Positions 4,657 to 62,466 of a stretch of 64,000 nucleotides of DNA are shown here, piece by piece; positions within the stretch are counted from its first letter, which is position 1; the number at the start of each line of letters is the position of its first letter. A program made the position numbers and the translations under genes. Below the pieces are notes generated by a model that worked only from the letters and a program-made list of their open reading frames with translations, made no database searches and was not told the origin of the DNA. The DNA is from a virus. The DNA lies in the UHGV virus genome UHGV-1366919, one strand, 5' to 3'.

Positions 4657-7501
4657 TCCTTTAAATATCTCCAAGGTAATGATAAACTTTGAAATTAATT
4701 CAATTATTAATTCTAATAGTGTTCCGTCTGAAGTTAAGGACACTATTAAACCTTATACATTTATTGAATTTATTTCAAAAACTTCTTTTGAAAATGATAA
4801 AGAAGTCTTTTTGACTTATTATAAAGAATATCTTACTGAATGGGCCAAAGTTAAAAATGATGACCATCAAATTATTGAGACTAAAGAATTAATTCAGTCT
4901 CAGATTATTGATTTACTTAAAATTATTACTGTTTCTTATGCTACCTTTGAAGAACAGGTCTTTTTATCTAATCTAAATTGGAATTTTAATTCATTAGAAG
5001 ATCCTAATGAGAAATTAAAGGCTAAAAATGCGATTTACTCAGCATTACCTATCTTTGTTTCCAGAATTAAAGATATTGCCGCTTTTTATAGAAATAAACG
5101 TACCGAAGCAACTTTTGTAATTGAGCGAAATAAGATTAAAGGTACTCAACTTTCTGTAGAAAAGATTATTTTTGATAAAATTTTAAGTTTTCTTTTTAAT
5201 GAAAATCCTGAACAAGTAAATTATGTTCAAAATTATTTGAATGTCTCTATCGATAACTTTGTAGACATTTATTCTGATTATTTTGATATTGACCGGGCTT
5301 CATCACTTTCTTGTGACTATAACGATATTGATTCTTCTCTTTATTTTGAGTTAGAAAATATATTAAGAGACATGATCTTTGACGGAAATGTCTATCTTCG
5401 GGAAATTCCGTTAATAGCCCAGCTTAGTCTTGACTTATCTCAGGATTGTGTCGGAGATAAACTTACTTTAAAGAATGAATTGCTGGAAAGCAGTAAAGTT
5501 TCTTTAATATCCGATGATGAAAAAATTAATATTAGAAAGAAACTTTATAAAAAGTACATTGGCGTTGATTTTTATTACTTGATTAAAGATTCTGAAGGTA
5601 ATATTACTACTGATGTATTCATTAAAGCTGATAATCCTTCAAATAATCTTCTAAACCAGCAAACTGTTGATACTCCATTTACTGAATCCAAACAATTAGA
5701 ACTTCTCAAGAATATTGGTTTATTTTTTAAACCAGATAAAACAAGTTTACTTAGAGTTAATACAACTAACTTTGATTATTCTATTGATGAAAGTAAAGTG
5801 GAACCCAACAAGGTTTATATTTTTCCTGATCCAAAAATTTATGGTAATGTAGCATTTAATCGACAAAAGGATTATCCTTATATTATTGAATATTCTTTAA
5901 CTGAATATTCTAAAAACTTTAACTTTGGCTGGGCCGTTAATGATCCATTAGTTGTTAGTGATGCTCAGGCAATGTTTGCCTACTATTCTAAAGAACAAGA
6001 TGTTGACAAGCTCAATAAAAATAATATTGTTTCTTTAAATTTCTATGAACTTTTTGATAAAGGATTTATAAGTTCCTTTAAATCCGACTTATATGGTAAT
6101 AAATTTGCTATTTTTAAAGAAAAAAATGGTAAATTTGCCCGAGATTGGAATTTTACTCCATTTGTTCCTCAGCCCGAAGTAGAAGAAAAGTTTTTATTAG
6201 TCGATGGAGGTGTTTTAGGAGTTGATGATGTGGGAGTTTCTACTGAAGTTTCGGCAGATAAAATTACATGGACTCCTGAAAATCATTATTATTCTTACTT
6301 TATCGAGGGAGGTATAAGCACCCTTCTTCCAGCTTATTTCCGTGCTTATATTCCTAATGGTGCAACAATTGGGAATGGTGATTTGACTCTTGCTATTGAG
6401 GATATTTTAAATGAACCGTTTAGTGCTGTAATAGATGGCAAGTTTATTACAACTGACTATAACGAAATTATCGATAACAATCAGTTTACTTTGCCTAAAA
6501 TTTATTATCAGAATGAAGAATACAAGACAGAACCTCTTCCTGATCATCTAAAACCTGATTATGAAAAAAATAAGGAAAAGACTTATTTTGAAATTCTTGA
6601 AGAAAAAGGTACAATCTTAATTTCTATTACTGGATTAGGACAAATTACTGACATATATTCAGCATTTCCCTGGTGGCAAACTTCTGCCGATAATGAAATT
6701 TATAATTTTTTTATTGAAAATGCTATTGATATTGATGTTATTGAGAATATATTCATCATTAAAGCTAAAAATCCAGCGACAGGAGCGATTCATTTATTAT
6801 TTGAAGGCATTAAATTTAATCCTCTGACTAATAAATTTGAACAGCTCTTTACTAATAAACAAGCTATTTTCTTTAATAATGAAAATTCTTTGATTAAAGC
6901 TTCTTATTTTGATGCCTTTAATTACAAGAGTTTTGAACTTATTAATCCTGCTTTCTTTTCTAGAAATGCAAATATTTGTGATAAAGGTTCCGATATTTTC
7001 TATATTGAGAAACTTCATAAATGTTATTTTGCAGTAATGAATGTCTCCATTAGTGAAAAATATGTCAATGGAACAAAAATTGAATTTCCTGTTTATTATC
7101 CGGACATTTATGAAATTGATTTAATTAATTTTACCGTTAAAAAATATTATTTTCATACTGAAGAGCAAAAAGCTGAATCTTTCCAAATTCCTTCTTCTCT
7201 CTTTAAAAATGGATCAGTAATGATTCAAAAGGCTGGAAATCCATGCTTAACTTATTCATTCGATACAAATACATTTATGCTTTCTTATGTCTTGTATGAT
7301 GTGAATATGTGCCCTTATGTCTATAAACATTTCTTCCAATTAAGTGTATCTGGAGTTGAATTATTTGGAGAAATAGATCCAGATTCTTTAGACTCAACCG
7401 TTTATAGTCCGGCATTTACCGGACAGGAATCTGTCATTACGCCAGGAGATAAAACAACGACTCTTTATCTGAATTTTAATACCAACTTTATTGTATCTTA
7501 A
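4634..7501 (+). CDS. Large baseplate/tail structural protein (hypothetical)
   Basis: A 955 aa ORF in the structural operon. The true start is possibly the internal ATG at about 4679 (MINFE..., preceded by AAGG), which would remove the overlap with the upstream gene. Confidence 0.45.
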   Translation: MRILDSISPLNISKVMINFEINSIINSNSVPSEVKDTIKPYTFIEFISKTSFENDKEVFLTYYKEYLTEWAKVKNDDHQIIETKELIQSQIIDLLKIITVSYATFEEQVFLSNLNWNFNSLEDPNEKLKAKNAIYSALPIFVSRIKDIAAFYRNKRTEATFVIERNKIKGTQLSVEKIIFDKILSFLFNENPEQVNYVQNYLNVSIDNFVDIYSDYFDIDRASSLSCDYNDIDSSLYFELENILRDMIFDGNVYLREIPLIAQLSLDLSQDCVGDKLTLKNELLESSKVSLISDDEKINIRKKLYKKYIGVDFYYLIKDSEGNITTDVFIKADNPSNNLLNQQTVDTPFTESKQLELLKNIGLFFKPDKTSLLRVNTTNFDYSIDESKVEPNKVYIFPDPKIYGNVAFNRQKDYPYIIEYSLTEYSKNFNFGWAVNDPLVVSDAQAMFAYYSKEQDVDKLNKNNIVSLNFYELFDKGFISSFKSDLYGNKFAIFKEKNGKFARDWNFTPFVPQPEVEEKFLLVDGGVLGVDDVGVSTEVSADKITWTPENHYYSYFIEGGISTLLPAYFRAYIPNGATIGNGDLTLAIEDILNEPFSAVIDGKFITTDYNEIIDNNQFTLPKIYYQNEEYKTEPLPDHLKPDYEKNKEKTYFEILEEKGTILISITGLGQITDIYSAFPWWQTSADNEIYNFFIENAIDIDVIENIFIIKAKNPATGAIHLLFEGIKFNPLTNKFEQLFTNKQAIFFNNENSLIKASYFDAFNYKSFELINPAFFSRNANICDKGSDIFYIEKLHKCYFAVMNVSISEKYVNGTKIEFPVYYPDIYEIDLINFTVKKYYFHTEEQKAESFQIPSSLFKNGSVMIQKAGNPCLTYSFDTNTFMLSYVLYDVNMCPYVYKHFFQLSVSGVELFGEIDPDSLDSTVYSPAFTGQESVITPGDKTTTLYLNFNTNFIVS

Positions 7502-17222: not shown

Positions 17223-17311
17223 ATAAATCAAAGTAATATGACTCCATGAGAAACTAGATCTTATTGCATATCTCTTTCTTATTTGATTAAAATAACTTTA
17301 AATTTAAAAAA

Positions 17312-17334
17312 GCGGTGAGAACGTTCTCACCGCT
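17312..17334. terminator. Bidirectional intrinsic terminator between convergent genes
   Basis: Perfect hairpin GCGGTGAGAAC/GTTCTCACCGC, flanked by an A-run (17305-17311) and a T-run (17335-17339). It lies between the + gene ending at 16984 and the minus gene ending at 17338. Confidence 0.8.
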
Positions 17335-17337
17335 TTT

Positions 17338-19521
17338 TTATTTAATTTTAATAAGATAGGTTAAAGATATGTTATAAGGTCTAGTTTCTTTGGGGGCAAT
17401 AGGTCCTATTAGGTTACTTAGGTTTAATTCATATTGAACATTAGCAAAAGCCCAATGGTTATCTCTATGTTGTGATAAAAAGTTCGCTTCACTTAGATAA
17501 GTTTGAGAAAAAGCACCAGTTCCACCGACATATAATGGATAACGCTGTCCCCAATTTTGAGAACGAACACAAGTTTTAAAAGTACTTTTGGTTCCTCCTT
17601 CTCCTGAAAGGGAACTTAAGACATATGGATTAGTTTGAGGATCTTCTATATCAAGAGGAGTATGAGCAGGAATAGTATATGTACCTTCACTTGTAATAGT
17701 AGAAGATGTAGTGGAAGCACCTCGAATAAATCTATTTCTTAAGTCTGGCAAATTAAATTGTCCGCCTCCCCCAATTACTGTTAAATGTGAAGTAACTGGA
17801 TGAGCCGTAGTATTAAAAGTAATTATAGCTAATCCTTGGCTTAATCGTAAAAATGGAATTCGCCATGGATTAGAATCAAACTCTAACCACCACTTAGACG
17901 GTACATGGATGTTATAATATCCATCATTTTGAATAGTATAAGTATTTTGCTCATTAATGGTAGCTAACAGTGTACTATTTGTATAGATAGTAACAGGCAA
18001 TGGTGTTCTTATGCCGTTCAATACAATACCAAGGCCTTGAGCAGTAATTACTGTTCCCTTCTTCAAATATAAAGACGGTTCATAATCATAAGCAGATTCG
18101 CCGCTTCTATTAATATTAAAGGGGGCAATATTTGTTGTTAATATTCCTTCAAGAACCAATGGTATATCGTTATAAGGCAAACTAGTTCCATCCAATACAA
18201 GGTAAAAATGCCTTTTAACACCTTCATTATCTGGATTCCAAGATTGCCAAACATCTAAATTAATTGATGTAATAGTATTAAAATTAAAAGTATATTGACC
18301 GCTTACAAATTGAGCTGTGTTAGTAACTTCTTCCGGACAATATAAAATATAATTAGCATAGCCTTCAGAAAGTTCTACATATGTCCTAGCATTAGAACTA
18401 TATTTGGCATCTATAGTACATTCCATTTCAGGAACTGTTACATTTATTTTTGGTAATTGCTGAAATGTATTATTACCAGTAGCGGGAATCCATAAACAAT
18501 AAATTCCATCCTCGGGAATAATATAAGATCTGTTATCAACAGTAGAAATTAAAGGGCTACCGTCAACTCCAAAAGTTGATAAATTTAATTTTTCTTTATT
18601 ATAGATATAAGCTTCGGATGCCCCGGCATTTCCAGCTAAAGTATATCGGGCTCCCTGAATTTGAACAACTGTGTTAGCGGGCAAATAGGCATATTCTGCG
18701 TGGGCAGCCTGATTTGGACTTTGCTCATAATTAATAGTTCTACCAGTTTGCCGCCAACTAATTTTTACAGATGGATTTTCAAATGTATCAGTAGTATTAA
18801 ATTCAATATTACTAAATTGGAGTTCATTTTTAACTAGTTCAAAATCTAAATCTCCTTGAGCCTGTAAAGAATTTATTTCTAATTTGGTCAAAGTAGTAAT
18901 ATTATTTTCATGAAATAAAGATGCTGCAATAATAGGAAGGCTTAGCCTTAATCTTTTATAAGATAATCTACTTGTACCGACTACCATTCGGTACAAATCA
19001 GGGAAATTATCAAAATTATATTCTTGCCCAGTTAATGAATGCCGATTTTGGCCATCGGCAAAATCATAATAATCCCTGAATCGCTGAGGAAGCAAATTAA
19101 GATCTTTTTGGGCAATTGCAACCGGAATAACAGTGCCCACTGGAACAGTTTGCTCCATAATTTGATTATCGGTAACAAACTGTTTAATAATTTCAATTAA
19201 ATCCTGATGCTCATAATTTCCGGCATTATCACCGATGAGAATATTATTTTTAGCCGGAGCAACAGTAGGAACATTAGTTTGAGTACCAAATGTAATCTTA
19301 TCTCTTAATTGAGTTTGGCTGACAATTTCTTTTTGAACTTCAATATGTTCAGTACCAATAGACAATGCAGAATTATTACCCATTGAATCAGCAACAGGAA
19401 CGGGTGTTAATCCAATACCAGTATCTGAACCGTCATCGGCCGGAGAAACACGTAAAATTCCTCGGAAAGATTTTGAAATTGGCTTTTTTGCTACGTCTCT
19501 ATTGTTTTGTTCTGTTGCCAT
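17338..19521 (-). CDS. Tail fibre protein with a C-terminal collar (gp12-like receptor-binding) domain
   Basis: A 727 aa ORF. The C-terminus (...NLPDLRNRFIRGAS...GTYTIPAHTPLDIED...) matches the phage tail-collar domain signature (LPDLRGRF.RG). The rest is T/S/G-rich fibre-like sequence. It contains the right arm of the inverted repeat. Confidence 0.7.
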   Translation of the reverse strand: MATEQNNRDVAKKPISKSFRGILRVSPADDGSDTGIGLTPVPVADSMGNNSALSIGTEHIEVQKEIVSQTQLRDKITFGTQTNVPTVAPAKNNILIGDNAGNYEHQDLIEIIKQFVTDNQIMEQTVPVGTVIPVAIAQKDLNLLPQRFRDYYDFADGQNRHSLTGQEYNFDNFPDLYRMVVGTSRLSYKRLRLSLPIIAASLFHENNITTLTKLEINSLQAQGDLDFELVKNELQFSNIEFNTTDTFENPSVKISWRQTGRTINYEQSPNQAAHAEYAYLPANTVVQIQGARYTLAGNAGASEAYIYNKEKLNLSTFGVDGSPLISTVDNRSYIIPEDGIYCLWIPATGNNTFQQLPKINVTVPEMECTIDAKYSSNARTYVELSEGYANYILYCPEEVTNTAQFVSGQYTFNFNTITSINLDVWQSWNPDNEGVKRHFYLVLDGTSLPYNDIPLVLEGILTTNIAPFNINRSGESAYDYEPSLYLKKGTVITAQGLGIVLNGIRTPLPVTIYTNSTLLATINEQNTYTIQNDGYYNIHVPSKWWLEFDSNPWRIPFLRLSQGLAIITFNTTAHPVTSHLTVIGGGGQFNLPDLRNRFIRGASTTSSTITSEGTYTIPAHTPLDIEDPQTNPYVLSSLSGEGGTKSTFKTCVRSQNWGQRYPLYVGGTGAFSQTYLSEANFLSQHRDNHWAFANVQYELNLSNLIGPIAPKETRPYNISLTYLIKIK
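17645..17687. repeat. Right arm of the perfect inverted repeat (inside the fibre coding sequence)
   Basis: Exact reverse complement of 16984-17027, read directly from the sequence. Confidence 0.85.
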
Positions 19522-32116: not shown

Positions 32117-32133
32117 TTAATAAAGCTAAATTG

Positions 32134-32166
32134 AAAAACCCGAAGGATTAAATCCTTCGGGTTTTT
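32134..32166. terminator. Bidirectional intrinsic terminator (copy 1 of a repeated hairpin)
   Basis: AAAAACCCGAAGGAT-TAA-ATCCTTCGGGTTTTT between convergent genes. A nearly identical hairpin recurs at 51183-51214. Confidence 0.85.
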
Positions 32167-32194
32167 CTTTTGTCAATATTTCATAAAAATATTC

Positions 32195-41595: not shown

Positions 41596-42777
41596 TCATT
41601 CCGCAATAAAAACCTTATTTCCTACATCCCATATCCGGTCCCAACCGTTTGCACTCATATTTTCATATTCAGATAATTTAAGATCAAAATAATTCAAAAG
41701 ACGCGGTAATTTATGTTTTTGAAATTGAACTCGGCTTTTTCGTTGAAGAGAATTATCTTTAAAATAAAAGTAATTCGGGTCAGCATCATGAATCTCCTTA
41801 AATCCAATTTGTCGATAAAGCTGACCTTGGGACCATCGACGATCGGCATATGTAATTACACTGCCTGCATTATTTCTACGAAAATATTCAAACAACTTGG
41901 AAGCTCCTCCAATTACTGTAAAATTAGCAACTGTACAATAGCGAATCAGTTCATAATCATATTTCTTGTTAAACCTGGATTTATTAAAAGTCATTACAGC
42001 CACCATGCGATTCTTATAAAATAATCCCAGATTAATGGAAGAAGCGTAAGTTCCTTGAATATGATATTTTAAAATAAATGGCTTAACTTGCTGATAAGTC
42101 AATTCGCGAACTTTACATTTACGAGCATAGATCTTTCCGGAAGTAATTCCAAGAAGATGACGAATACGGGCCTTAACAATCTGCGGCTTCAATTCCCATT
42201 CATCTTCGAATACATGAATTAACCGTACTCCTTTTTCTTCACACTTATTTGTTTCAGTCAAATGGTACCGTTTAGTAAATCCATTTCGTTCACAATGTCC
42301 TGAAAGGGAATCAAACTCAAAAGCAATCTTCTTATCTGGAATATGAATAGCAATAGTATAAGGAGCTGCTAACTCTTTATCATTCTCAATAATCCGGCCA
42401 TTATAAACACTTTTAATATAATTTATAAAATTATTATAAGACTCAGGGTTAGATACCGGCTCAACAATAGGAGCTGGTTCTTTTTTAGAAGACGTGGAAA
42501 CTTTTTTAATTTTTTCCTTCTTTTGCTTTGGTTCTTTTGGAGCTTTGGACACTTTAGGCTCTGTATTTTTCCTTAATGCTTCAATAGCACATTGCCTGCA
42601 TCCATACTTGGAACGTATAAAATGCTGGGTTAAACAAAAGAAAGATCCATGATCCTTGCAAATAATTTCAACCGGTTTCCTGTTACTTTGATAATCAACT
42701 TTAGAGTAATCAAATTGATCTCCAAATTTTTCAAGGCAGAATTTAATAAAAGCTTCCTTACGTTGTTCTTTTTTCAT
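41596..42777 (-). CDS. Homing-endonuclease-like protein (N-terminal zinc-ribbon repeat unit, C-terminal Vsr/DUF559-like nuclease-fold domain)
   Basis: A 393 aa ORF. The N-terminal unit (FDYSKVDY...IICKDHGSF...H..YGCRQC) is homologous to the repeats of the next gene. The C-terminal segment (IAFEFDSLSGH...GVRLIHVFEDEW) resembles the PD-(D/E)XK Vsr/DUF559 family. It is a paralog of 42799-44109. Confidence 0.5.
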   Translation of the reverse strand: MKKEQRKEAFIKFCLEKFGDQFDYSKVDYQSNRKPVEIICKDHGSFFCLTQHFIRSKYGCRQCAIEALRKNTEPKVSKAPKEPKQKKEKIKKVSTSSKKEPAPIVEPVSNPESYNNFINYIKSVYNGRIIENDKELAAPYTIAIHIPDKKIAFEFDSLSGHCERNGFTKRYHLTETNKCEEKGVRLIHVFEDEWELKPQIVKARIRHLLGITSGKIYARKCKVRELTYQQVKPFILKYHIQGTYASSINLGLFYKNRMVAVMTFNKSRFNKKYDYELIRYCTVANFTVIGGASKLFEYFRRNNAGSVITYADRRWSQGQLYRQIGFKEIHDADPNYFYFKDNSLQRKSRVQFQKHKLPRLLNYFDLKLSEYENMSANGWDRIWDVGNKVFIAE

Positions 42778-42798
42778 AGAATGAATATAACTAATTTC

Positions 42799-44109
42799 TC
42801 AATTTTTAAAGGTGCGCAGATTACACACTTTATTTTTAGTATGTATCTTGGTAAACAACAAATTTTCTATAGATTTTCTATTATTTTTCCAGTCTCTTTC
42901 TTCGACATTTATTAGTAGAATATTTGCTTCTTTACAACGCCTTTCCTTTTCGGCATGACAGCCAGGCTGTCTTTCTTCTTTAAGTTTATGCCAGTGAGAT
43001 CCATTATATTCAATGCCAATTCTTAATTCGGGAAGAAATATGTCAAGCTCCATTCTTCCTATTTGAGTCTTATCATTTTCAAGAACTTCTCCCGAATAAA
43101 TTGACTTAATATATGCACAAACTTCTTTTTCTCCTCTAGATGTCTGTTTAGATAAGGCACATATTGGACAACCTTGTTGAAGATACCAATGACTAGACGG
43201 TATTTGTTGAAATACTCCGTGTACAGGACATATGATATTAACCTTAGAATGTGCGTTTACATAATTTACTAAAGAATAATCATATTTTTCTCCATGAACT
43301 TTTCTAGACCTCTTAATAAATTCATCAATTGTTAACTTTTCAAAACCAAAACATTTAGGACACCCTGAGCCATTTAAATGACTATTTGGTTTTTGCCAAA
43401 AAATACCATGTTTAGGACAAATAATTGATATTTTTTTCTGAGAATGCTCATAACTTACTTGAGAATAATCATAAAGAGTACCATGAACTTTTCTTGCTTT
43501 CTGAATAAAATCTTCAGTCGTTACTAACTCTTTATTTCCACATTTTGGACAACCACACCCATTAAGATGGGAATTAGGTGTTTGCTGAAATATATGTCCA
43601 CACTTTTTACATTTAATTTTTACCTTAACTTTATTACCCTGGTAATCCACTTCAGAATAATCAAATTTATCACCGTGTACTTTACTAGCTTTTTCAATAA
43701 ATTCTTTAGTTGTAGATTTATTGTTATTAGAGCAAAAAGGACATCCAAAACCTTTCATGTGGCTTTGTGCCTGCTGTTCAAATATATGCCCGCATTTTTT
43801 ACATTTAATTTTTACTTTAAGCTTATTGCCTTGATAATCTACTTCAGAATAATCAAATTTATCGCCATGAACTTTTTGGGACTTTTCAATAAATTCTTTA
43901 GTTGTTAGCTTCTTAACACCAGCACATTCTAAACATCCGCATCCCTGGACATGGCTATAAGCTTTTTGCTGAAAAGAACCGTGAATAGGACATATTATTG
44001 TTATGACATTATGAGCTCCTGTATAAAAAGTCTCAGAATAATCATATTTGTTTCCATGAACCTCTGTACATTCTTTAATAAATTGCTCATTTGATTTTAA
44101 TTTTGCCAT
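42799..44109 (-). CDS. Homing-endonuclease-like protein with 5-6 tandem zinc-ribbon repeats and a C-terminal Vsr/DUF559-like domain
   Basis: A 436 aa ORF. It has about six copies of a ~56 aa unit (EFIxKxxKVHGDKYDYSxVxY....KVxIxCxKHGxFxQ....H..GxGCPxC). The C-terminal segment (ELDIFLPELRIGIEYNGSHWH) is nuclease-fold-like. The repeats are near-identical at the DNA level. Confidence 0.5.
   Translation of the reverse strand: MAKLKSNEQFIKECTEVHGNKYDYSETFYTGAHNVITIICPIHGSFQQKAYSHVQGCGCLECAGVKKLTTKEFIEKSQKVHGDKFDYSEVDYQGNKLKVKIKCKKCGHIFEQQAQSHMKGFGCPFCSNNNKSTTKEFIEKASKVHGDKFDYSEVDYQGNKVKVKIKCKKCGHIFQQTPNSHLNGCGCPKCGNKELVTTEDFIQKARKVHGTLYDYSQVSYEHSQKKISIICPKHGIFWQKPNSHLNGSGCPKCFGFEKLTIDEFIKRSRKVHGEKYDYSLVNYVNAHSKVNIICPVHGVFQQIPSSHWYLQQGCPICALSKQTSRGEKEVCAYIKSIYSGEVLENDKTQIGRMELDIFLPELRIGIEYNGSHWHKLKEERQPGCHAEKERRCKEANILLINVEERDWKNNRKSIENLLFTKIHTKNKVCNLRTFKN
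43290..43960. repeat. Intragenic tandem DNA repeats (~168 bp units)
   Basis: Adjacent repeat units are nearly identical at the nucleotide level (for example the two KVHGDKFDYSEVDYQGNK(L/V)KVKIKCKKCGHIF units). They produce the spurious + strand ORF 43567-43908. Confidence 0.7.
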
Positions 44110-44734: not shown

Positions 44735-46237
44735 TTAGGCCTTTAGGCCAATTATTTTAAAAGGAATCTTTTCTTGCTCATATAATTTGATACGTTCATC
44801 TCTATGCCTTAACGCATATTTTGTATTGGGAATTATATCGATAACCCGGGCAAGAGTTTTATTTTCCTTTAAACGCAGTATTCGTCCGATGGATTGAATT
44901 ATTCTTACATTGCTTTTTCCAATCAAACCAGGAAATACAATATTATGCAAATTTTTGATATTGATACCTGTTGAGAATATTGAAGCTTGAGCAATTAACA
45001 AAATATTGTTTTCTTTTTCCAATTGCTCCTTAATATCGGTTCGTTCTTCAATCGGCACCTCTCCTTGAATAAAGTAAACTTTTCTATTCGGATCGGCTTC
45101 TTTAAATTTTTGCAGAAGATTTTCCCCATGAATAATCCTATTGACCAAAATTAAAGTATTATTGCTTAATTTTGAAACAATAGAAGTAATAGTTGAGTTA
45201 AACTGGTCATTATTGCTCAACCATTCGGTTTCTTCCATGAATCCAAAAGGCCTTTTAACACCTTCATCATCCAGGACATAAGTCGGAATATCATTTAATT
45301 GAATATTAATTCCAAAAGTTGAAACCTGCGTCAGGAATTTATCTTTTCTTAATTCTGCAGAAGGCAGTTCAAATCTTACAGGTCCAATTTTGCCTAAGAT
45401 TGACCATTTGTCATGTTTATCATGTGGTAATGTACCTGTGAAGCCATATCTTAACTTAGCCGGAAGATCTGCGATAATCTTAGAAATTTTATTATTGGCC
45501 TTAATTGAATGAACTTCATCGATGATAATACAGTCAAATTTTTGTATCTCTTTTTTAAGGTCATCATACTGGGCTCTGAGAATACTTGCTCCGCAAATAA
45601 CGACTTGTGATTTCTTATCGAAAGGAATATTTGAAAACCATTTGGAAATAGAATATTTGAAATTCTTTAAATGCGAAGAAATATCATTAAAAGTCTGATT
45701 GGCCAAATCAGGAAAAGGACAAACCAATAAAACTTTTCTGGCTAATTTATTCTTAAGAATATTCCGGATTAATAATGCGCAGCATACTGTCTTGCCCGCT
45801 CCTGTTCCTAAAATATAAATACCGTTTTGCTTATTAAGGGCAATTTGCATCGATTCTTTTTGATAAGGCCTGACTTCTGATCCTTTATCATCAATATAAA
45901 TGTTCTTCGTATCAAGAACTAAATCATTGCTCTGAATATATTTTTTAATGCCGTCATCTAATTTAAATTTAACAGAACGATCATAAAATGTATTCTTAAC
46001 AAATGCAAGTATGTCTCGTAATAATCCGATTTCAAATTCACCGGACATTTTAATGCAAGATTTCTTAATATATTCTTTACTCGGTTGAATTTTGATGCCT
46101 TTTTGACGACATCTCTTGACATACATATGATTTCGTTCAACTGTAGAAAAATGATCTCTCAATTGTTCATAAGCATCAAAGTACTCAAATATAATCCTAC
46201 CAAGATTATTTGATGTTCTGTTGATTTCGATAATCAT
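44735..46237 (-). CDS. uvsW: UvsW-like SF2 DNA helicase
   Basis: A 500 aa ORF with Walker A (ILGTGAGKT) and a DEVH box (IIIDEVHS). The C-terminus (IQGEVPIEERTDIKEQLEKENNILLIAQASIFSTGINIKNLHNIVF...IIQSIGRILR) aligns closely with T4 UvsW (VSGEVDTETRNIMKTLAENGKGIIIVASYGVFSTGISVKNLHHVVL...VLQTIGRVLR). Confidence 0.85.
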   Translation of the reverse strand: MIIEINRTSNNLGRIIFEYFDAYEQLRDHFSTVERNHMYVKRCRQKGIKIQPSKEYIKKSCIKMSGEFEIGLLRDILAFVKNTFYDRSVKFKLDDGIKKYIQSNDLVLDTKNIYIDDKGSEVRPYQKESMQIALNKQNGIYILGTGAGKTVCCALLIRNILKNKLARKVLLVCPFPDLANQTFNDISSHLKNFKYSISKWFSNIPFDKKSQVVICGASILRAQYDDLKKEIQKFDCIIIDEVHSIKANNKISKIIADLPAKLRYGFTGTLPHDKHDKWSILGKIGPVRFELPSAELRKDKFLTQVSTFGINIQLNDIPTYVLDDEGVKRPFGFMEETEWLSNNDQFNSTITSIVSKLSNNTLILVNRIIHGENLLQKFKEADPNRKVYFIQGEVPIEERTDIKEQLEKENNILLIAQASIFSTGINIKNLHNIVFPGLIGKSNVRIIQSIGRILRLKENKTLARVIDIIPNTKYALRHRDERIKLYEQEKIPFKIIGLKA

Positions 46238-46370
46238 TATAATTCAATTATAACGTAAAATATTCAAAATTGATCAAAAATTATTCAAATAATTTAATAT
46301 TAATAACTTAAATTACACAATATTTATTTGATTTTAATATAATTTATTTAAATTTAATTAATTATATCAA

Positions 46371-46420
46371 ATATAATTGGTATACTGGTCTCGCGCGCGG
46401 GAGGAGAATACCAATTATAT
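46371..46420. repeat. Hairpin with AT-rich 12 bp arms around a GC core (GGTCTCGCGCGCGGGAGGAG)
   Basis: The arms ATATAATTGGTA and TACCAATTATAT flank the GC-rich core. Confidence 0.7.
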
Positions 46421-46535
46421 TTTAATTATATTCAATTATATTTTAATTATAATAAAATTATTTTGAAATTTATTTTCAAAATTTTAATTTTATTTTCAAA
46501 TTTATTTTGAAATTTGAAACATACGAACTTATTAA

Positions 46536-46555
46536 GGGGTACGCGCGCGTACCCC
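46536..46555. repeat. Perfect 20 bp GC-rich palindrome GGGGTACGCGCGCGTACCCC
   Basis: Self-complementary as read. An adjacent element GCCCATTAGGGC lies at 46561-46572. Confidence 0.8.
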
Positions 46556-46581
46556 ACATAGCCCATTAGGGCAATATTCAT

Positions 46582-46600
46582 AAGCGTGCAGCGCACGCTT
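46582..46600. repeat. Hairpin AAGCGTGC-AGC-GCACGCTT
   Basis: An 8 bp stem with a 3 nt loop, read directly. Confidence 0.7.
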
Positions 46601-46671
46601 TCTACTTTATATTTAATTAATTAAATATAAATAAATATTTATTTATATTTAAATTATAATATAAAATATTA

Positions 46672-46706
46672 AAAATAATTTAAAATAATTTAAAATAATT
46701 TAAAAT
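46672..46706. repeat. Tandem direct repeat (AAAATAATTT) x3
   Basis: AAAATAATTTAAAATAATTTAAAATAATTTAAAAT, read directly. Confidence 0.7.
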
Positions 46707-46722
46707 ATTAAAAATTTTTTCT

Positions 46723-46771
46723 ATGCGCGCCCGCGCCCGCACACACGCGCACACGAAATCACCGAGCGCTG
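46723..46771. repeat. GC-rich alternating purine-pyrimidine tract
   Basis: TATGCGCGCCCGCGCCCGCACACACGCGCACACG...ACCGAGCGCTG. This has Z-DNA-prone (CG)n/(CA)n character that is unique in the window. Confidence 0.7.
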
Positions 46772-46865
46772 TTTTGGAGGTTTAACCAAATAGATAATTG
46801 TCTAATCCGAATAAGATTTGAATAAGTACATTTATTATCAGGATCTCTTCGGTACTCTATGGATA

Positions 46866-46906
46866 ATAAAAAACCAATCTGACTTATAGAAATCAGATTG
46901 GTTTCG
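46866..46906 (-). terminator. Intrinsic terminator for uvsY (minus strand)
   Basis: Stem AACCAATCTGA/TCAGATTGGTT. On the minus strand the hairpin is followed by TTTTTT (A-run on the + strand at 46866-46872). Confidence 0.7.
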
Positions 46907-47019
46907 ACAATTTATTTTTAAAATCTCCTGGAGAATTATTTTAAATTCTTTTACCCTCCAGGTAGTAAAGTACAAGCCTAAAAGTTTTTAAAATTTTCTA
47001 GATATTTTTTAGAATTAAA

Positions 47020-47418
47020 TTACAGAACTTGAAGCTGCATGATCTCGACGATGTTCTTAACGTCATTCGTAATATAGGCGAAGATCTTTTCGACTTTATT
47101 CAAATATTCAACCAGCATCTTTTGATCTTCGATCTCTTGAGTAATTTCCTGCATAGGCTTGGTATTGGCAATAACATTTTTCATAGAAGCAGTAGACATT
47201 TGAACCAATGGCTCCTGCTTTTCAAGGGCAGTTTTTTCAAGAGCTTTCTTCTTTCGTTCCAATCTATTGAGTTCCTGTGTTTCTAAAATCAGCTTTGTTA
47301 CCCAATAATGTTTTCTTTGAGGAATTTCAAAAGATTTTTGCTGAATAACCATTTCATTTAATTTCAAATCTTCAGCAATTTCTTTTGAGTATTGTTCGAG
47401 TTTTTCTTGAGGTGTCAT
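47020..47418 (-). CDS. uvsY: Recombination mediator UvsY-like protein
   Basis: A 132 aa ORF, close in size to T4 UvsY (137 aa). It has a loosely similar heptad/charged pattern and sits adjacent to uvsW. Similarity is moderate only. Confidence 0.45.
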   Translation of the reverse strand: MTPQEKLEQYSKEIAEDLKLNEMVIQQKSFEIPQRKHYWVTKLILETQELNRLERKKKALEKTALEKQEPLVQMSTASMKNVIANTKPMQEITQEIEDQKMLVEYLNKVEKIFAYITNDVKNIVEIMQLQVL

Positions 47419-47445
47419 GTCTTTAACTAATGTTATTATAACATC

Positions 47446-47883
47446 ATGAAGCTAAAAAGACATAAGGATATTGCCTCATTATTCATTAACAAGAAAAAAG
47501 TTGAAGAAGACTGCGAAGGAATGACAGCAGGTTCTGTTTTAGCTCCTTCAGCCCAGGCGACTGGAGGAAATATTACAAATACCGATTCGTATGCCCCAGG
47601 AGACAATAGAATTCCTAAGTCTTTATTCAAAACGAGGGTTATTAAACGAAAATATAAAGAAGAAGATGCTGAAGAATATCCTGAAATTCCGGCTGATTTC
47701 TTTACTGATAAGGAATGGGAAAAAATTGAAGAAGAGGCTGAAAGCCGTGGATGCAGTCCTTATGAAGTAGCTTATCGAGAATATAAAGCCAGAGGAGGAA
47801 TGGACCAGGACCGCAAAATGACGGATATTGAAGTTCAAAAAGCATTTGATGAATTAAAATCGCATTTGGCGGATTATAATTGA
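47446..47883 (+). CDS. Hypothetical protein
   Basis: A 145 aa ORF, divergent from uvsY. Confidence 0.35.
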   Translation: MKLKRHKDIASLFINKKKVEEDCEGMTAGSVLAPSAQATGGNITNTDSYAPGDNRIPKSLFKTRVIKRKYKEEDAEEYPEIPADFFTDKEWEKIEEEAESRGCSPYEVAYREYKARGGMDQDRKMTDIEVQKAFDELKSHLADYN

Positions 47884-48344
47884 TTCCAATGAATCAAGAT
47901 TTAGGTCATTGGGTTACTTCGATAGACATCCCTGAAGAAATATTCGGGTTTGTCTATCGAATTACCAATTTGGAAAATAATAAAATGTACATCGGTAAAA
48001 AACTTTGTACATCGGTTAAAAAGCTTCCTCCATTAAAAGGTAAAACAAGAAAAAGACATAAAAAAGTAGAAACAGATTGGAAAACTTATACCGGGTCTTC
48101 TCCGGAATTAAATGAAGATATTAAAAAATTAGGCAAAGATAAATTTAAATTCGAGATTATAAAATTTTGTACCTGTAAATGGGAATTGAGTTATTTTGAA
48201 GCAAAGGCCCAATTTGAAGAAGATGTTTTATTCAAGCAAGATGAATATTACAATGGTATAATCAATTTAAGAATTGGCCGTTCGCCAAAAGAAAGTCTTG
48301 AAAAATTTAATTTATGCCAATCGAATTTAAAATCCGGAATTTAA
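47880..48344 (+). CDS. GIY-YIG family endonuclease (Seg-like/EndoII-like)
   Basis: A 154 aa ORF. GFVYRITNLENNKMYIGKK is the GIY...YIG signature. Confidence 0.6.
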   Translation: MIPMNQDLGHWVTSIDIPEEIFGFVYRITNLENNKMYIGKKLCTSVKKLPPLKGKTRKRHKKVETDWKTYTGSSPELNEDIKKLGKDKFKFEIIKFCTCKWELSYFEAKAQFEEDVLFKQDEYYNGIINLRIGRSPKESLEKFNLCQSNLKSGI

Positions 48345-51179: not shown

Positions 51180-51182
51180 TTA

Positions 51183-51214
51183 AAAACCCGAAGGATTTAA
51201 TCCTTCGGGTTTTT
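51183..51214. terminator. Bidirectional intrinsic terminator (copy 2 of the repeated hairpin)
   Basis: AAAAACCCGAAGGAT-TTAA-TCCTTCGGGTTTTT between convergent genes. The stem is identical to the one at 32134-32166. Confidence 0.85.
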
Positions 51215-51216
51215 CT

Positions 51217-62163: not shown

Positions 62164-62466
62164 TTAATAGCTTTCCCCCAAATCACTATTTTCCTCAATT
62201 CTTAACATTTGTATATCTTTTACTGACTCACTAAACCAAGTCAATTGTTTTGCTAATTTTTGAACTGCCAAAACACATGATACTGCATTTATCTTATCTT
62301 TATCTCCAAAATATACTGATTCCTGTTGCCTTTTAAAACCTTCTTTTACTAATACTTTTTCAATATCTTTATAAGCATTATTCCATGAAGTATTATGATA
62401 CAAAGCTTTCAATTTATCTGTATCTAAATCAAACACAATCGCATACATACGTTCATTATTAGACAT
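62164..62466 (-). CDS. vapD: VapD-like endoribonuclease (Cas2 superfamily)
   Basis: A 100 aa ORF. MYAIVFDLDTDKLKALY...NNAYKDIEKVLVKEGFKRQQESVYFGDKDKINAVSCVLAVQKLAKQLTWFSESVKDIQMLRIEE aligns along its full length with VapD of Helicobacter/Haemophilus ([84 protein letters not shown]). The true start is probably the MYAI at about 62448. Confidence 0.75.
   Translation of the reverse strand: MSNNERMYAIVFDLDTDKLKALYHNTSWNNAYKDIEKVLVKEGFKRQQESVYFGDKDKINAVSCVLAVQKLAKQLTWFSESVKDIQMLRIEENSDLGESY

Follow-up and report, generated by a model that had tools for sequence, protein, structure and literature searches.

T4-like phages replicate mostly by recombination and from several origins without a common motif. 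To our knowledge, replication origins have been established experimentally in very few of them, and the lack of a shared motif precludes the annotation of origins in thousands of uncultured relatives. We have analysed a 64,000-nt stretch of the virus genome UHGV-1366919 (hereafter the window), in which a uvsY-like and a uvsW-like gene are separated by a 782-nt spacer (window positions 46238-47019). In T4, origin oriF is ori(uvsY), in line with an earlier note on this DNA that had placed oriF in the uvsY region; for oriF and oriG a promoter is sufficient together with an A+T-rich unwinding element of exchangeable sequence, oriE, oriF and oriG sit at transcription switches with compositional shifts, and the R-loops of the origins are unwound by UvsW (PMC3016281). 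We tentatively read the spacer of UHGV-1366919 as a module of unwinding and non-B DNA that operates at the DNA level and is plausibly an origin of the T4 type, made of a transcript and an unwinding element, in addition to carrying the uvsY terminator and the uvsW promoter; we place this reading a little short of an even chance.

The window has a GC content of about 31% and its T4-like genes are tightly packed. The spacer is its sole gap longer than 300 nt, the runner-up measuring 283 nt, in agreement with the earlier note, which had been made from the letters alone and had described it as the one long non-coding stretch of the 64 kb and as a candidate replication origin. All the elements listed in that note were found at their places, some of them with another extent or nature than first described. 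The GC minimum of the window (100 bp at 0% GC) falls in the spacer, and so do its two longest alternating purine-pyrimidine runs (18 and 14 nt) and three of its four longest perfect palindromes, namely two AT palindromes of 32 and 26 bp and the 20-bp GGGGTACGCGCGCGTACCCC. The fourth, at 17305-17340, is a 36-bp perfect palindrome (TAAAAAAGCGGTGAGAACGTTCTCACCGCTTTTTTA), the longest of the window, and corresponds to an ordinary terminator-type hairpin in a 172-nt gap. With 1.2% of the window, the spacer holds 9 of the 21 CGCG, 10-11 of the 32 GCGC and all seven CGCGCG/GCGCGC hexamers. Folded as single-stranded DNA it reached -122 kcal/mol against -69 ± 5 kcal/mol for shuffled sequences (z -11). 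The oddity of the spacer is thus statistically striking and beyond chance.

The spacer contains an alternating purine-pyrimidine GC/GT tract (46725-46755) with a perfect run of 18 nt at 46738-46755, the longest in the window. When alternation over at least 12 nt with a richness in CG and CA/TG steps is taken as the mark of Z-DNA-prone sequence, the spacer runs of 18 and 14 nt both qualify, which supports the Z-DNA potential ascribed to this tract at the outset. The same tract had also been counted as the last of four CGCG palindromes; it has no excess self-complementarity (z -0.5 and -1.3) and is not a hairpin, so that the spacer contains three GC hairpins or palindromes and one alternating tract. 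Next to it lies a 115-nt run free of G and C (46606-46720), the lowest-GC DNA of the 64 kb and a candidate unwinding element. This run includes perfect AT palindromes of 26 bp (46606-46631) and 32 bp (46621-46652), of which the long AT palindromes first quoted are parts, and a phased 10-bp repeat array (46656-46715) with 6.2 copies instead of the three initially counted. Beyond it, towards uvsW, are found the GC hairpin AAGCGTGC-AGC-GCACGCTT (46582-46600; 8 bp, 3-nt loop, DNA fold z -3.6), a small hairpin GCCC-ATTA-GGGC (46561-46572, seen both in the sequence and in the DNA fold) and the perfect 20-bp palindrome (46536-46555) with its 14-nt alternating core, recovered by the palindrome and alternation scans; the AGC-loop hairpin and the 20-bp palindrome are as the earlier note had described them. 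Still closer to uvsW, a hairpin or cruciform at 46369-46422 (DNA fold z -5.8) has perfect AT arms around GGTCTCGCGCGCGGGAGG, which span 15 bp (46369-46383 and 46408-46422) and not 12 bp.

The same build was recovered in distant relatives; loci of strains and relatives compared with the window are designated here by L-numbers. At 56-68% UvsY identity (L025, L026, L027, L050 and, in part, L049), uvsY is followed by a non-coding spacer of 390-520 nt and by uvsW, and transcription diverges at the uvsY start, as it does in the window (47419-47445, about 400 nt from the spacer). None of these spacers aligned with that of the window beyond low-complexity AT, yet most of the relatives share a layout which, from uvsY, comprises an alternating GC/GT tract, an AT tract, GC clusters or hairpins, AT repeats and a uvsW promoter of the extended -10 type. 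The first alternating tract comes shortly after uvsY and measures 19 nt in L025, 33 nt in L026 and 31 nt in L050. Directly after it, 50-150 nt are nearly or wholly free of G and C (AT-only tracts in L026, L050 and L025), and the L026/L050 clade has a second alternating tract. Alternating runs of 19, 33, 31, 25 and 18 nt in the spacers of L025, L026, L050 and L007 are the longest of each locus, and we estimate the chance of a 33-nt perfect alternation in 8.4 kb at ~2e-6. When (CG)3-type hexamers were sought in the loci of five relatives, they were confined to the spacer in four and absent in L027. Short GC hairpins are present in L025, with a sequence that differs from those of the window (loops of 3-4 nt in L007 and L025). 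By this comparison of sequences, the conserved partner of the candidate unwinding element is the alternating tract and not the CGCG palindromes. A build that is kept without alignable sequence is as predicted by a physical rather than a sequence requirement, and the retention of the alternating tract, though Z-prone tracts are deletion hot spots, suggests selection.

Between the spacers of the distant relatives L025 and L027, the sole robust similarity is ACTTTCTTTCTTTATATATTTCTTTCTTTA (approximately 4730-4760 and 4745-4775, respectively), a duplication of the motif TTTCTTTCTTTA which is absent from the window. Outside this clade, GC/GT alternating tracts of about 40 and 100 nt were seen in two IMG/VR sequences of 73 and 160 kb (L020, 820-837; L022, 13357-13374). 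These are low-GC phages with no proteins in common with the window, and their tracts stand in AT-rich intergenic DNA just upstream of genes; L022 has an exact 25-mer in common with the tract at 46725-46755. Such alternating tracts may be a wider feature of AT-rich phages. Matches of a core 20-mer in four GC-rich bacterial genomes were attributed to chance.

Close strains displayed mosaic alleles of the spacer. Over the uvsY-proximal 300 nt, 18 distinct strain variants were aligned. Common to all close strains are the uvsY-proximal ~200 nt and a core, GGTGATTTCG[C/T]GTGCGCGTG..GCGGGCGCGC, together with the beginning of the AT tract after it, and the core alternating tract is kept where the DNA on both sides has been swapped. 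The uvsY-proximal ~200 nt are the least variable part of the spacer (diversity 0.004-0.028 versus 0.01-0.07 in uvsY), and diversity climbs to 0.12 close to the alternating tract. Between the uvsY terminator and the alternating tract lies a segment of moderate GC content (46756-46869); it is variable in the alignment of the 18 variants and is replaced in L037 and L038, which have a different segment left of the core. L007, L031 and L048 have only the first ~290 nt in common with the window and continue into an unrelated AT-rich right half, even though the UvsY proteins of L007 and L031 are 100% identical to that of the window; L007 has a short GC hairpin of other sequence ahead of the same ATTGCC. 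L048 has a left part resembling L035 and a right part resembling L007, joined at the alternating tract. Smaller differences concern the copy number of the 10-bp unit (L004 and L013 are shorter by 20 nt), one more copy of the 11-nt unit AATTAAAATAT inside a 21-bp repeat (L011 and L035), and indels of 2 and 6 nt in the alternating tract.

TnpB (IS605 OrfB/Cas12f-like) elements were present or absent between strains at three sites: between a 145-aa gene and uvsY (L007, 6463-7701), in the DUF723 HNH gene equivalent to window 42799-44109 (L004, 12064-13176; also L011 and L013), and in a 65-aa ORF just past uvsY of a relative (L049, 3587-4849). We considered the spacer palindromes as remnants of IS200/IS605 ends and rejected this origin, the ends of the TnpB elements being AT-rich and unrelated to the GC palindromes.

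Such mosaicism raises the question of whether the spacer is simply a dispensable and fast-evolving insulator, selected solely for termination of uvsY and for a separate start of uvsW, with its odd tracts as by-products of slippage and recombination. Whole segments have been replaced between strains with identical UvsY, the copy numbers of repeats and the 2-nt and 6-nt indels resemble slippage, L049 tolerates a TnpB insertion and no sequence is conserved between lineages; the recognised types of element are limited to a terminator and a promoter, alternation is automatic in compound dinucleotide repeats, and the comparable GC clusters of yeast mitochondria are palindromic recombination hot spots (PMC4478555). 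A dispensable spacer would however leave unexplained why a compact genome keeps it, with deletion-prone tracts, through deep divergence: the window has no other gap above 300 nt, yet 390-520 nt are kept here even where UvsY identity has dropped to 56%. In a genome of ~30% GC, the GC-rich alternating tracts come back at this one place and were not seen in other parts of the examined loci, the core tract persists across recombinant alleles, the first 200 nt vary less than the uvsY coding sequence, and the GC elements are not dispersed copies. We consider this explanation the main rival, albeit a rather doubtful one. Should it be correct, the spacer would still mark a recombination-prone and hard-to-assemble locus that breaks many metagenomic contigs of a common gut phage.

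The concentration of long perfect palindromes and the restriction of (CG)3 hexamers to the spacer, together with mosaic strains such as L048 whose junction is at the alternating tract, would also be in keeping with a programmed fragile or recognition site, at which palindromes, cruciforms, Z-prone tracts or CGCGCG cores are cut or bound by phage enzymes and seed recombination-dependent replication and gene conversion. Such a role could fall to the C5-methyltransferase, to the gp46/47-like nuclease or to the GIY-YIG and HNH endonucleases encoded nearby; the earlier note had already speculated that the GC islands are recognised by endonucleases or the methyltransferase. The few kb around the spacer do contain GIY-YIG, DUF723/HNH, C5-methylase, Mre11-like and Rad50-like genes. 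The L007-type allele however lacks the CGCG palindromes of the window, neither CGCG nor GCGC was avoided in the remainder of the window (ratios 0.78 and 0.92), and non-homologous alleles merely make recombinants easier to see; we judge this explanation unlikely. Homing-endonuclease-type genes are dense in this neighbourhood: a SegE-like GIY-YIG gene is located at 47880-48344, and two neighbouring DUF723/HNH endonuclease genes (393 and 436 aa, with internal repeats) lie at 41596-44109 beside the gp55-like gene. A mobile or dispersed family of GC clusters was rejected because the islands are single-copy; each has its own sequence and none was seen outside the spacer. The search for further copies proposed in the earlier note, made with the 20-bp palindrome and the AAGCGTGC hairpin, gave no exact copy in IMG/VR and none elsewhere in the window.

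To return to the reading of the spacer as a T4-type origin, a further indication came from strand composition. The per-gene GC skew, regressed on gene orientation and on the side of the spacer, gave an orientation-independent side effect of 0.047 ± 0.011. A breakpoint scan was run on the window and on a 73-kb sequence obtained by extension with L051. The best breakpoint fell at 44-54 kb, with a sign change within 42-54 kb of the 73-kb sequence; the residual skew was negative on the left, then close to zero throughout 42-54 kb, and on the right it reached +0.06 to +0.08. This polarity is compatible, at poor resolution, with that expected for bidirectional replication starting in the 42-54 kb interval. 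The spacer is also located within a cluster of replication and recombination genes (gp46/47-like, DNA polymerase, uvsW and uvsY). It holds the most easily melted DNA of the window. The candidate origin of the earlier note is partly supported: it withstood the indirect tests applied and fits the AT-rich unwinding element, the strand switch, the skew shift and the conserved build.

Several points weigh against an origin at this place. The positional analogy to T4 oriF is loose because the spacer, of 782 nt, lies 3' of uvsY; T4 oriF measures about 100 bp and is found at the gene's 5' end, where uvsY has its promoter, and the uvsY promoter of the present phage (TGTTATAAT) is at 47443, beyond the limits of the spacer. 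In contrast to oriF and oriG, no convincing promoter leading from the terminator side into the G/C-free tract was detected on the minus strand by a sigma-70-like scan, MotA-type promoters not being searched; the AT-only DNA scored 20 sigma-70-like sites versus 11 ± 3.3 in shuffles, all of them weak. DnaA boxes (TTATCCACA) formed no cluster: the spacer has one box with 1 mismatch (46858-46866), which is not conserved across strains, and the window has 28 such boxes versus 20 ± 4 expected. Among the neighbouring proteins scanned, none had a Rep-like or initiator-like Pfam domain, nor a Z-DNA-binding domain. The earlier note had named, as a reason to abandon the origin, an ordinary transcribed leader whose palindromes are not conserved in related phages, and part of this was observed: the 20-bp palindrome and the AT-armed hairpin are missing from L007 and L031, with their identical UvsY, and from the equivalent right half of L048. 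The replacement of whole segments in L007-type and L037-type alleles fits dispensable DNA equally well, as does the TnpB insertion of L049, and L027 is an exception to the conserved build, with no alternating run of 13 nt or more. At the low resolution of the analysis, the skew breakpoint extends over ~10 kb and a second optimum lies near 16 kb, and the skew shift could stem from the composition of gene classes. Finally, the 73 kb viewed are part of a genome of ~200 kb, and as T4-like phages have several origins without motif, one locus is not singled out from sequence.

If the spacer is an origin of this type, its function would draw on three kinds of supercoil-responsive sequence: the Z-prone alternating tract (46725-46755), the adjoining 115 nt free of G and C, and the GC hairpins and palindromes beyond. 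A transcript would cross the G-rich tract on its way from uvsY to uvsW, or start in the AT tract, and would remain hybridised within the G/C-free unwinding element. The resulting R-loop could open the duplex and prime leading-strand synthesis, as happens at T4 oriF and oriG, and UvsW, encoded beside the spacer, might later clear such R-loops. Any role in replication, the formation of R-loops and that of Z-DNA or cruciforms in vivo are what we infer here. A bolder version, which we find decidedly doubtful, would be that a clade of gut T4-like phages keeps, at a fixed site, a supercoil-responsive module in which the Z-prone tract abuts an unwinding element whose AT palindromes can form cruciforms, and which is selected for its physical properties instead of its sequence, either as the main early origin or as a switch from origin-dependent to recombination-dependent replication ahead of uvsW, with Z-DNA or an R-loop at the G-rich tract controlling the opening of the unwinding element. 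If the spacer is indeed an origin, the combination of alternating GC/GT tract, G/C-free tract, palindromes and strand switch would provide a recognisable signature that can be searched in AT-rich phages, and it would constitute a natural case of Z-DNA-prone or cruciform-prone DNA maintained in a phage despite its instability.

The two ends of the spacer appear, from their sequence, to carry ordinary signals. On the uvsY side, a terminator scan located the intrinsic terminator of uvsY on the minus strand (46870-46905; stem of 12-16 pairs followed by TTTTTT, DNA fold z -8.1). Its stem has a single variant (L037 and L038), a G-T wobble on the minus strand. Closer to the gene, also on the minus strand, the hairpin CCTGGAG-(22 nt)-CTCCAGG (46927-46962, DNA fold z -2.0) falls inside the least variable 200 nt of the spacer, and its strain variants gave 3 wobble votes for each strand. 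On the other side, the AT-rich uvsW leader (46238-46368, minus strand) contains an extended -10-like promoter, (C/T)GTTATAAT, with TATAAT at 46247-46252 on the minus strand, as read from the sequence. Directly upstream of uvsW, TGTTATAAT or TGATATAAT is retained in L007, L001, L027 and L025, in differing surroundings. The T4 late promoter TATAAATA was rejected as a general promoter motif, since the window has just 4 copies, of which two fall within the 32-bp palindrome. Between this leader and the 20-bp palindrome extend AT-only arrays phased at 11-12 bp (46413-46515), with an 11-bp repeat array of nine copies (46413-46508), a 21-bp direct repeat in two copies (46412-46451) and four exact copies of TTATTTTSAAA (46458-46512), which confirm the arrays of 8-mers described earlier. 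The ordinary terminators of the phage have a stem flanked by A and T runs. By contrast, no T runs accompany the 20-bp palindrome or the alternating tract, nor the AT-armed hairpin. Two further terminators of the window, at 32117-32194 and 51180-51216, are bidirectional and nearly identical (AAAAACCCGAAGGATT(A/T)AATCCTTCGGGTTTTT); each separates convergent genes, and the two sites are about 19 kb from each other.

The spacer ORFs of 49 and 45 aa had no PHROG matches, a 20-aa Arg-rich ORF across the alternating tract loses its frame in other strains through indels of 2 and 7 nt, and a 65-aa ORF of the L026 clade has no counterpart in the window spacer. Rfam 15 returned nothing at the gathering score in the 64 kb, chance-level matches alone in the spacer at E up to 10, and nothing relevant in six relatives; ARAGORN found no tRNA or tmRNA. 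RNAalifold was applied to both strands of 9 distinct variants, a small sample of close strains which limits the power of the covariation analysis. Both strands folded with similar energies, and one robust compensatory pair was obtained, in a TTGG/CCAA hairpin at 46774-46789. Single changes on majority Watson-Crick helices amounted to 13 minus-only wobbles, 11 plus-only wobbles and 13 plain mismatches; in the absence of strand bias there is thus no sign of structural selection on one RNA strand, the uvsY terminator excepted. Taken together, these results indicate that the spacer is non-coding and acts at the DNA level rather than as a structured RNA or a protein gene.

One or several small structured RNAs would nonetheless account for some observations. 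The candidates are a plus-strand RNA of ~80 nt that would take in the 20-bp palindrome together with the GCCC and AAGCGTGC hairpins, the latter followed by a T-rich tail, or an antisense RNA running from the alternating tract to the uvsY 3' end. GC-rich hairpins fold far better than shuffles in this AT-rich genome, a TTGAAA-17-TATTAA read from the sequence stands upstream of the 20-bp palindrome, the hairpin at 46582-46600 resembles a terminator on the plus strand (a weak fit to an intrinsic terminator), the compensatory pair is a G-C to A-U change with a G-U intermediate on the plus strand, and diversity is low in the first 200 nt. Against these stand the equal folding of both strands, the unbiased wobble counts and the lack of any Rfam family in the spacer, even at the permissive threshold, and in the six relatives; moreover, the alternating tract is no hairpin, those of the ~80-nt candidate are absent from the L007-type allele and the sequences are not retained in relatives. 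We regard such RNAs as improbable, slightly more so than a recognition site.

Contigs often end inside the spacer (L001, L010, L017, L024, L029, L030, L032-L034, L036-L038, L047-L049), in most cases just past the alternating tract, and three of them are ~201 kb long. L010 ends in the Nextera adapter CTGTCTCTTATACACATC, and at the start of L017 an inverted copy is folded back where the 26-bp AT palindrome lies. These breaks are explained by the palindromes and by low coverage of G/C-free DNA. Physical genome ends at this position were rejected, as adapter read-through, palindrome fold-back and AT-only DNA account for the clustering. That the spacer itself is an artefact of assembly or sequencing, as the many contig ends, the adapter and the fold-back might suggest, is scarcely credible: an identical 782-nt spacer was recovered in at least 9 independent assemblies made with different assemblers, its variants are phylogenetically coherent and analogous tracts exist in relatives.

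The genes on either side were those named in the earlier note. The uvsY-like gene (47020-47418, minus strand, 132 aa) matches PHROG 231, 'UvsY-like recombination mediator' (E 5e-8); its product scores under the cut-off of the UvsY Pfam family, and homologues at 35% identity carry PF11056. The uvsW-like gene (44735-46237, minus strand) encodes an SF2 helicase of 500 aa whose best matches are cyanophage UvsW proteins at ~32% identity. Other T4-like genes of the window encode a portal, gp13 and gp15 homologues, a B-family DNA polymerase, gp46/47-like nuclease subunits and a gp55-like late sigma factor, besides a C5-methyltransferase and GIY-YIG and HNH endonucleases. In the contig collection, 2146 index blocks list exactly this UvsY-like protein, and the contigs read with it measure ~200-205 kb, at least one of them being labelled human gut; no DNA similarity to the window was found in cultured phages. 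The phage is an abundant, uncultured, T4-like phage of the human gut with a genome of ~200 kb. A 100-aa ORF at 62164-62466 has a weak precomputed Pfam match to Cas2 (PF09827), and about 9 kb past the window end (L051, 1-1285) lie PAPS-reductase/GTPase and APS-kinase-like genes for sulfate activation.

Among known systems, the spacer resembles T4 oriF and oriG in several respects. It is intergenic or regulatory DNA in a uvsY/uvsW neighbourhood, with uvsW encoded alongside, it contains an extreme A+T-rich, easily unwound segment, and it lies near a transcription strand switch and a compositional skew shift, the latter at low resolution. No specific sequence is needed in T4, and this matches a build that is conserved here without sequence. 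The definition of the T4 origins includes neither the Z-prone alternating tracts of the spacer nor its palindromes, be they GC palindromes or the long, perfect AT ones.

Origins of the iteron type include T4 oriE with its 12-nt repeats, lambda ori and plasmid origins. The spacer shares with them direct and inverted repeats spaced by 10-12 or 21 bp next to an AT-rich segment. Its repeats are however AT-only, degenerate (69-86% matches) and variable between strains, they are replaced in L025 and L027 by two copies of TTTCTTTCTTTA, and no initiator-like gene was seen among the neighbours scanned. On account of these degenerate AT-only repeats and of the lack of an initiator-like domain among those neighbours, we do not place the spacer in the iteron/initiator class.

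In yeast mitochondria, the ori/rep elements consist of three GC clusters separated by AT stretches. GC clusters of this organelle are palindromic, reside in intergenic AT-rich DNA and are recombination hot spots (PMC4478555). The spacer likewise has short palindromic GC islands in AT-rich intergenic DNA, with a fast turnover and an association with recombination. Yeast clusters form dispersed multicopy families with defined target sites, whereas the islands of the spacer are single-copy, mutually different and restricted to one spacer.

Lastly, PMC13174585 cites work on Z-DNA-forming (CG)n and (CA.TG)n tracts in supercoiled plasmids (Nordheim and Rich 1983; Freund et al. 1989) and on Z-prone tracts as deletion hot spots in bacteria (Freund et al. 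1989). The tracts described here are comparable in their perfect alternation over 14-33 nt and in their CG and CA/TG steps, and their 2-nt and 6-nt indels fit the known instability. They differ from plasmid tracts in occurring in a natural setting, at one conserved position in a phage clade, and always paired with a G/C-free tract.

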